Below, piece by piece: positions 33,700 to 34,988 of a stretch of 39,415 nucleotides of DNA. The notes beneath the pieces were generated by a model that searched no databases, was not told the DNA's origin, and saw only the letters and a list, made by a program, of their open reading frames with translations. The position numbers and the translations under genes were made by a program. The first letter of the stretch is position 1, and every line of letters begins with the position of its first letter. The DNA is from a virus, in UHGV virus genome UHGV-0176211; one strand, given 5' to 3'.

Positions 33700-34146
33700 G
33701 TGAGGCAAATATACATGCTTCGCAACGAAGCAATCAGAAATAACGCCATAGACGCAATACTCTCACTTCCCATCGACGACAAGTCACCTCACGAAGTCCA
33801 CGTTAAAGAACCAAAGCGGAGCAATCCTCAAAACCGACTTATGTGGGCGTTATTGCAGGACGTATCACGTCAGGTGCTTTGGCATGGAAAGAGACTTGCG
33901 CCGGAGGACTGGAAAGATCTGTTCACTGCCCTGTGGCTTAAGACCAAAAAACTGGAGCAACGAAGCGTTCCTGGTATCGACGGTGGCGTTGTCATGCTTG
34001 GCGTGCGTACCAGCAAAATGCGAAAGGTCAGCATGACTGAGCTTATCGAAATCATGTTCTGGTTCGGCTCAGAGCGCAACGTGCGGTGGAGTGATGACTC
34101 CAGGCGAGAGTATGAATGGTCACAACGAAAAGGGAGGGCTGCATGA
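33700..34146 (+). CDS. ninB: NinB recombination protein
   Basis: 148 aa, GTG start with AGGAGG RBS; SNPQNRLMWALLQDVSRQVLWHGKRL and C-terminus match lambda NinB as recalled. Confidence 0.8.
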   Translation: MRQIYMLRNEAIRNNAIDAILSLPIDDKSPHEVHVKEPKRSNPQNRLMWALLQDVSRQVLWHGKRLAPEDWKDLFTALWLKTKKLEQRSVPGIDGGVVMLGVRTSKMRKVSMTELIEIMFWFGSERNVRWSDDSRREYEWSQRKGRAA

Positions 34147-34988
34147 TAAATGTCGTTAGTTTCTCAGGTGGCAGGACGTCAGCATATTTGCTCTGGCTAA
34201 TGGAGCAAAAGCGACAGGCAGGTGAAGACGTGCATTACGTTTTCATGGATACAGGGGCAGAGCACCCTAAAACATATGAGTTCATCCGAAATATCGTCAG
34301 TAACTGGAAAATAGACTTACATTGCCTTCGTGTAATACCTAATCCAGAAATGGGGAAGGCCAGTAGTTATGAAGAGATAGGTGTCAATGATATTGGTCCA
34401 GATCTTATACCGTGGAAAAGGATGTTGAATAAATACGGACATCCATATATCGGCGGTGCGTTCTGTACCGACAGAATGAAGTCTGTTCCATTCACCAAAT
34501 ATTGTCAGGAAAAGTTTGGGAAAGGAAATTACATCACATGGCTTGGCATTCGCACAGATGAACCAAACAGGCTTAAAAGGGCTAATGGTTTTCGGTACCT
34601 GGCTGATATAAGCGATTTTGAAAAACAGGATGTGCTTGATTGGTGGAGTGGGCAGAAGTTTGATCTTGGCATACAGGAGCATCTTGGTAATTGTGTTTTC
34701 TGTATAAAAAAAAGTATGCAAAAGGTTGCGCTGGCAGCCATGGATGAGCCAGAACTTGCAGATGCATTTATCAACATCCTTGATACAGAAATAAAAACAG
34801 GAAAGGAACCGGTTATGTATCGAGGGAATAATACACTTAAATCACTGATTGCCTTGTTTAGTGATATATCAAGAGATGAGTTAGCCTCAAGAATGACATC
34901 AATGCGACAGTATGATTCAGGTTCGTGTTCTGAATCATGTGAAGCATTTTCATGTCAGCTTGGATTTAATTTTGAGGATGCGGCATGA
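34143..34988 (+). CDS. PAPS-reductase-like PP-loop protein (NinC position)
   Basis: PP-loop-like SFSGGRTS near N-terminus, Cys-rich C-terminus; start chosen at ATG overlapping the ninB stop (track start 34116). Confidence 0.55.

Follow-up and report, generated by a model that had tools for sequence, protein, structure and literature searches.

What chemistry does a protein that resembles phosphoadenosine phosphosulfate (PAPS) reductase perform among the early genes of a lambdoid phage? The question is raised by UHGV virus genome UHGV-0176211, a stretch of 39,415 nucleotides (the window) that represents essentially the whole genome of a P22-like lambdoid phage. The gene concerned is an open reading frame (ORF) of 281 amino acids (aa) running from ATG to TGA at positions 34143..34988 of the plus strand, between ninB and ninE. 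By its sequence it is the lambdoid ninC, the orthologue of lambda NinC, and it encodes an SspD-like PP-loop protein whose closest characterised relatives are the phosphorothioation enzymes SspD, BrxP and DndC, and not the sulfate-assimilation enzyme CysH. Here we present the evidence for this relationship, together with a proposal to which we give an even chance of being right: NinC would be a stand-alone phage PP-loop ATP pyrophosphatase of the SspD/BrxP/DndC branch, transferring sulfur to phage DNA and serving as a dispensable means of counter-restriction.

Catalytic motifs, cysteines and closest relatives

A preliminary description of the locus, made from the letters alone, had reported a PAPS-reductase-like PP-loop protein of about 280 aa with an SGGRTS motif in the position that ninC occupies in lambda. 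Both parts were borne out. The loop reads SFSGGRTS at aa 6-13 and the only Pfam match is PAPS_reduct, which scores 35 bits where 22.5 are required and extends over profile positions 2-114 of 175; the neighbouring genes are recognised by Pfam, and the protein shares 57% identity with lambda NinC (NP_040635, 290 aa) over the full length (E 5e-118). It also matches PHROG 33262 with E 4e-112, the NinC family corresponding to PHROG 33262/424, and this family comprises 2160 clusters in a 90% database, with 1505 representatives at 50%. Because of the Pfam score, the PHROG match and the 2160 homologue clusters the ORF is not a chance one.

NinC has the SGGxD/T-S loop and the Rossmann-like alpha/beta/alpha nucleotide-binding fold by which PP-loop ATP pyrophosphatases are recognised. 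Residue conservation was judged on 34 homologues with identity down to 29%. The preliminary description had named the absence of active-site residues on alignment as the observation that would speak against it; the PP-loop and the catalytic motifs were instead found to be invariant. Within the PP-loop (34158..34181, on the plus strand like all the following motifs) S8 and S13 are invariant and G9, G10 and T12 are conserved at 90% or more, and the loop aligns with SGGKDS of SspD. The motif MDTGAEHP (aa 35-42, 34245..34268), with T37 and E40 invariant, corresponds in the alignments to DTG in CysH and to DTGKELPE in SspD. It is followed by FCTDRMK (aa 107-113, 34461..34481), which contains the first core cysteine, C108, and K113, both invariant, and aligns with RWCTRKLK of SspD and aaCTtqLK of PptA. 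GIRTDEPNR (aa 135-143, 34545..34571) aligns with GIRADE..R of SspD, and its residues G135, R137, D139, E140 and R143 are invariant. The CxxC pair C184/C187 lies in GNCVFCIKK (aa 182-190, 34686..34712), where G182, N183, C184, C187 and K190 are invariant and which aligns with SGCFFCFFQ of SspD and NNCVGCVK of PptA. In the tail GSCSESCE (aa 260-267, 34920..34943), modelled with a confidence score (pLDDT) of about 70, C266 is invariant and C262 conserved at 90% or more. In total NinC has eight cysteines (61, 108, 121, 184, 187, 262, 266 and 271), five of them in the C-terminal third, as expected from the cysteine-rich C-terminus described before. Some relatives (L051-L053, L056, L058, P0080) carry an insertion of about 20-60 residues after approximately residue 145 of NinC, and one SspD (L094:4983-6083) has an insertion of about 90 residues at the corresponding place in the fold, beyond approximately residue 140.

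The SspD profile used for comparison was built from four diverse SspDs of plasmid SspB-SspC-SspD operons; the SspD homologue search had given only sequences at least 91% identical. Each of the four reference genes comes after a DUF4007 (SspB-type) gene and a large neighbour that occupies the place of SspC, and in the Polaromonas operon SspB, SspC and SspD were all confirmed by PADLOC, SspD over its full length with E 6.7e-140. Aligned to this profile with hhalign, the NinC profile reached a probability of 99.7% and E 3.7e-26 over 208 columns, with the motifs and the core cysteines in register. The SspD cysteines C88, C173/C176 and C274/C277, invariant in the four sequences, are laid out as are C108, C184/C187 and C262/C266 of NinC; the tails lie outside the hhalign alignment, and there the invariant C-terminal CxxC of SspD, which follows an acidic stretch, resembles the C262x3C266 tail of NinC. 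A comparison of hidden Markov models with PAPS reductases, lambda NinC and DNA-modification families, as proposed in the preliminary description, places the protein in the lambda NinC family, fails for the PAPS reductase equivalogs and ranks SspD best among the DNA-modification families (PADLOC E 2.6e-14, followed by BrxP with 6.6e-8 and DndC with 5e-4). Judged by these alignments, the catalytic domain and the cysteine layout of NinC are of the SspD type.

PptA (PDB 21fy chain C, 270 aa) aligns to the NinC profile with a probability of 97.3% and E 2e-11 over 180 columns, with CT..LK and NNCVGCVK in register, and to the SspD profile with E 6.5e-10. When a 62-aa fragment of PptA was used as the query for homologues, the database relatives obtained were five short metagenomic ORF fragments only.

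Distribution of NinC and its fusions to methyltransferases

The ninC gene and its family are already known, and near-identical annotated copies exist in public records, for instance in P22-like phages of Salmonella (SE16 among them), whose annotated NinC is 98.9% identical to the window protein. Among 5,426 complete Escherichia coli genomes 28 hold copies at least 99% identical to ninC, and NinC-like DNA occurs in 512 (about 9%). Family records include 539 from phages and 333 from plasmids. Within the window ninC forms an AT-richer cassette with a GC fraction of 0.39-0.43 vs 0.48-0.52 in the flanks. The flanking ninB and ninE/ninF DNA is matched at 90-95% in more than 400 phage records, the whole stretch including ninC in 8 only. 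In many other lambdoid phages the ninC slot holds a Dam gene or is empty.

A lambda-like NinC, 57% identical to the window protein, was also encountered on low-coverage contigs of up to about 48.5 kb or on short fragments (L110, L112, L115, L116, L117, L119 and others) in assemblies of the unrelated genera Pseudomonas, Oceanobacillus, Neobacillus, Shewanella, Bradyrhizobium, Kitasatospora and Enterococcus. These contigs look like contamination of public genomes with lambda control DNA.

The gene neighbourhood was surveyed at 80 viral and 80 bacterial NinC loci. The NinC module is found fused to Dam (PF05869) on either side and to D12 N6A methyltransferase at its C-terminal side, and Dam or D12 is fused to NinC or located within about 4 kb of it at 11 of the viral and 19 of the bacterial loci, in all cases but one at a distance of at most 2.4 kb. 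In a prophage of Sodalis sp. RH21 a single ORF of 1031 aa (L103:5438-8530) combines a C5-cytosine methylase, NinC and Dam; a single ORF of 1099 aa in a Mixta tenebrionis prophage (L104:5402-8698) combines a C5-cytosine methylase, NinC and a D12 N6A methylase. Each of the two would be a three-enzyme polyprotein for DNA modification. In E. coli ST540 a 99.9% identical ninC allele belongs to a series NinB-Dam-NinC-NinE whose stops and starts overlap, and the gene order recurs in Salmonella phage Oslo with a lambda-type NinC. On conjugative plasmids of Acinetobacter a NinC homologue is located 1.2 kb from an N6 methylase, amid genes for H-NS, a nuclease and ParAB. In the window itself no similarity to Dam or D12 was found anywhere, and NinC ends at aa 281 without a fused Dam.

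Because the fused partners come from three unrelated methyltransferase families (Dam, D12 and C5), the common denominator would be protective modification of the element's own DNA and not adenine chemistry. The nucleotide or DNA-modification chemistry that the preliminary description held probable is thereby supported from two sides, by the homology to SspD and by the fusions to DNA methyltransferases.

A conserved partner gene beside NinC was considered as well and rejected, as clustering of the neighbours at the 80 viral loci gave ordinary lambdoid genes only (CI, NinB, NinE, NinF, NinG, RusA and DnaB) and no recurrent nucleoside triphosphatase (NTPase), desulfurase or DNA-recognition partner. 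Neither the window ORFs from 150 aa upward nor the early region as scanned with Pfam contained DndD- or DndE-like genes.

Proposed function and alternatives

Genetic evidence exists for one relative of NinC only, p0018 of Vibrio phage 44E38.1 (QZI91755), for which an anti-Dnd phenotype was described. The first 270 aa of the window protein share 62% identity with the N-terminal PAPS module of p0018 (E 6e-121). When p0018 and p0019 were moved into a sensitive phage, this phage multiplied on a Dnd+ Vibrio host (Piel et al. preprint, bioRxiv 10.1101/2021.05.05.442762), and later papers cite the work on p0018 as a phage PAPS reductase evading Dnd (PMC13551039; PMC10945359). The literature already contains the idea that defence based on phosphorothioates is countered by phage "PAPS reductases". 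Added here are the explicit correspondence of motifs and cysteines to the SspD type, the rejection of the CysH label, the fusions to three methyltransferase families and the 62% link of a stand-alone lambdoid NinC to the Vibrio anti-Dnd gene.

DndC has an ATP pyrophosphatase activity that requires a [4Fe-4S] cluster, and it has been suggested to adenylate its target phosphate first, with persulfide attack as the next step (PMC6435447). While the sequences themselves show the gene and its orthology, the conservation of the motifs, the kinship to SspD, the fusions and the identity to p0018, from its relatives we infer for NinC the use of ATP, an iron-sulfur (Fe-S) centre, a DNA substrate, sulfur transfer and a role in counter-defence. 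The gene would be expressed from the delayed-early nin operon during phage replication and would be dispensable under laboratory conditions. By homology, the SGGRTS loop would bind ATP and adenylate an oxygen of the substrate with release of pyrophosphate. The host cysteine desulfurase IscS would supply sulfur, which C108, C184 and C187, together with the flexible C262/C266 tail, would carry as a persulfide or in an Fe-S centre, and this sulfur would then displace AMP. The substrate is most likely phage DNA, which would receive a phosphorothioate-type mark, and NinC may act alone or plug into the scanning subunits of a host Dnd or Ssp system. The mark could serve as an accessory shield of phage DNA from host restriction, notably from phosphorothioate-based Dnd or Ssp defence.

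Several points weigh against this proposal. We know of no report of phosphorothioate in lambda DNA. The PADLOC match to SspD is limited to aa 4-144 of NinC and profile positions 3-122 of 277. No similarity to SspB or SspC was found in the 39-kb window, and no recurrent NTPase neighbour at the 160 NinC loci. A homologue of p0019 (DUF6475) was not found in the window either, on which ground p0019 was also rejected as an obligate partner of NinC. Of greatest weight is that all phosphorothioation pathways characterised so far need a P-loop NTPase (DndD, SspC or BrxC) and a DNA-recognition subunit (PMC12914056; PMC12707154). In the Vibrio transfer the PAPS module was left unseparated from the fused Dam domain and from p0019 (10.1101/2021.05.05.442762). 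Coral Vibrio phages that carry the gene infect hosts with and without Dnd, and no association was noted by the authors (PMC10945359). Finally, ninC of lambda is dispensable (PMC10695390).

Since the NTPase and the DNA-recognition partner are both absent, NinC must either rely on subunits of the host, function by itself or have another role. That it works entirely alone, as a self-sufficient one-protein enzyme which marks replicating phage DNA with sulfur (as phosphorothioate or thio-base) using host IscS and ATP only, is considered rather unlikely. If true, no NTPase or DNA-recognition subunits would be required, unlike in all known phosphorothioation systems, and lambda itself would carry a DNA modification function so far unnoticed.

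The alternatives start from the names that NinC-type proteins bear. PHROG and RefSeq label them PAPS reductase, Pfam PAPS_reduct scores above its cut-off, and the best PDB match by Foldseek is CysH, all of which would suit a genuine assimilatory PAPS or adenosine phosphosulfate (APS) reductase acting as an auxiliary metabolic gene that raises sulfur assimilation in the host. Against this stand the NCBIfam equivalogs, which failed widely (PRK02090 for PAPS reductase scores 18.7 bits where 154 are required, TIGR02055 APS_reductase 16.6 where 235 are), and the hhalign comparison with E. coli CysH (87.8%, E 3e-6, 99 columns), which aligns NinC 1-124 to CysH 46-147; the homology ends at approximately residue 130. 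The loop of CysH is a degenerate SSSFG without ATP chemistry, whereas NinC retains the ATP-type SGGRTS. The catalytic cysteine of CysH lies in a C-terminal ECGLH motif, to which no counterpart was found in NinC, where the tail reads CSESCE, and NinC is fused to DNA methylases. A true CysH or APS reductase was rejected on the missed cut-offs and the short homology, and as an explanation of NinC it is scarcely credible. Because the CysH match covers only the N-terminal 100 residues or so and the SspD match about 210 columns, the label "PAPS reductase" is misleading, and virome studies that count it as a sulfur auxiliary metabolic gene probably mislabel a DNA-directed function. Action on RNA or a small molecule is very improbable too. 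NinC would in that case thiolate tRNA in the manner of TtcA, TtuA or NcsA, or carry out a reaction of the nucleotide pool, and so tune translation or evade anticodon nucleases. The NinC profile aligns to E. coli TtcA with a probability of 8% (E 0.0042, 41 columns), covering the PP-loop alone, by which a TtcA-like tRNA thiolase was rejected; NinC is fused to methyltransferases of DNA and not to enzymes acting on RNA, and the neighbours in the window are genes of DNA recombination and repair.

Two further alternatives keep the connection to DNA or to its defence. NinC may modify DNA by another chemistry, adenylating a nucleobase oxygen as TilS, ThiI and GMP synthase do, with substitution by sulfur or an amine; a modified base would result and an NTPase partner would not be needed. 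This is unlikely, though less so than the other alternatives. Against it count the homology of NinC, which is clearly closest to SspD, the cysteine pattern included, and the fact that to our knowledge no unusual base has been reported in lambda DNA. NinC could also be a non-catalytic decoy or hijacker, a mimic of SspD or DndC that sequesters host IscS or the SspBC/DndDE scanning complex and modifies nothing. Such a role would agree with the anti-Dnd phenotype reported for the relative and with the solitary occurrence of NinC, a homologue of a single subunit from host systems that have several; all catalytic motifs, including the PP-loop serines, are however invariant down to 29% identity, which a pure binder would not need, and fusion to active-looking methyltransferases indicates enzymatic modification of DNA. 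We regard the decoy as improbable.

Because NinC resembles SspD far more than a sulfate-assimilation enzyme, a role in counter-defence is probable, and ninC is probably an accessory counter-defence gene of a kind ordinary for such phages. The results support a refinement of the preliminary description, by which the protein is kin to SspD, BrxP and DndC rather than to CysH and the gene is one already catalogued. NinC belongs to a large family and is one of the few genes of lambda still without a function, which the present results make a matter of simple experiments in a model phage.

Gene context and comparison with known systems

The gene ninC is preceded by a strong Shine-Dalgarno sequence GGGAGGG (34132..34138, plus strand), read from the sequence 4 nt 5' of the ATG. 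An alternative start, the ATG at 34116, would give 290 aa; the 281-aa reading is preferred because MINVV is the beginning of lambda NinC as well as of the NinC annotated in SE16. On the 5' side ninB (33700..34146, plus strand; Pfam NinB 6e-48, PHROG 72) is joined to ninC by an ATGA start/stop overlap at 34143-34146, and on the 3' side a second ATGA overlap at 34985-34988 joins ninC to ninE (34985..35170, plus strand; Pfam NinE 4e-25), after which ninF follows. Pfam names NinB, NinE, NinF and NinH around ninC. Between the replication gene and ninB a consensus scan matched a GC-rich, terminator-like hairpin with a T-run (33538..33567, plus strand). From its position this would correspond to tR2 of lambda, in which case expression of ninC would depend on antitermination.

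Further along the nin region a putative nuclease, YbcO, and RusA are encoded at 36347..36996 (plus strand), where lambda has NinG/Rap. The window contains three antirepressor-type genes, with Rha and KilAC domains at 25295..25966 (minus strand), ORF6N and KilAC at 35577..36347 (plus strand) and again Rha and KilAC at 37297..38031 (plus strand). Two of them lie inside the nin region, one between ninF and the YbcO/RusA/NinH genes and one after ninH. At 18153..18656 (minus strand) an HNH_3 endonuclease with an AP2 DNA-binding domain, of the homing-endonuclease type, directly precedes an ORF of 898 aa on the opposite strand (18670..21366), which by position is a putative tailspike gene. The 968-aa Toprim/AAA_25 primase-helicase (ORF 30601..33507, plus strand) contains an intein of about 342 aa (31714..32739) with Hint and LAGLIDADG_3 domains. 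This intein interrupts the Walker A motif, GVNGHGK-[ACPLDEP...VATHN]-TEVVG, and may start with Ala, not Cys; the inteinless homologue of Salmonella phage Oslo reads GVNGHGKTEVVG at that site.

Among known systems lambda NinC resembles the window protein in its N-terminus, its motifs, the C-terminal SCSESCE and its place in the nin region, immediately behind ninB. In lambda, ninD is located between ninC and ninE, whereas the phage of the window has no ninD, and the NinC described here is a diverged allele. PptA is a member of the same superfamily as NinC and SspD and differs by its variant PP-loop SCGAPS. DndC and BrxP, which belong to Dnd and BREX type 4 phosphorothioation respectively, share with NinC the PAPS_reduct-type PP-loop domain with an SGGxxS loop, but they are far larger proteins (profiles of 468-779 positions) to which NinC gives weak, N-terminal matches only, and they need the partners DndD/DndE or BrxC, which are absent here. 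SspD, a PP-loop sulfurtransferase that acts in the SspABCD system of single-strand DNA phosphorothioation, is closer, with 279 vs 281 aa and the motifs SGGxxS, DTGxE, CT..LK, IRxDE..R, CxxC and a C-terminal Cys pair in common. The identity is only about 25%, the tail reads CxxC in SspD and Cx3C in NinC, and all four reference SspD genes stand beside SspB (DUF4007) and the SspC NTPase, NinC in none of the loci examined. The Vibrio protein p0018, recorded as "Dam methyltransferase with PAPS reductase domain", differs from the NinC of the window by a C-terminal Dam domain (aa 300-476). It shares with it every motif and the CSESC tail, its gene belongs to an early region too and has a ninG/rap homologue in its vicinity, and it is closer to the window protein than lambda NinC is.

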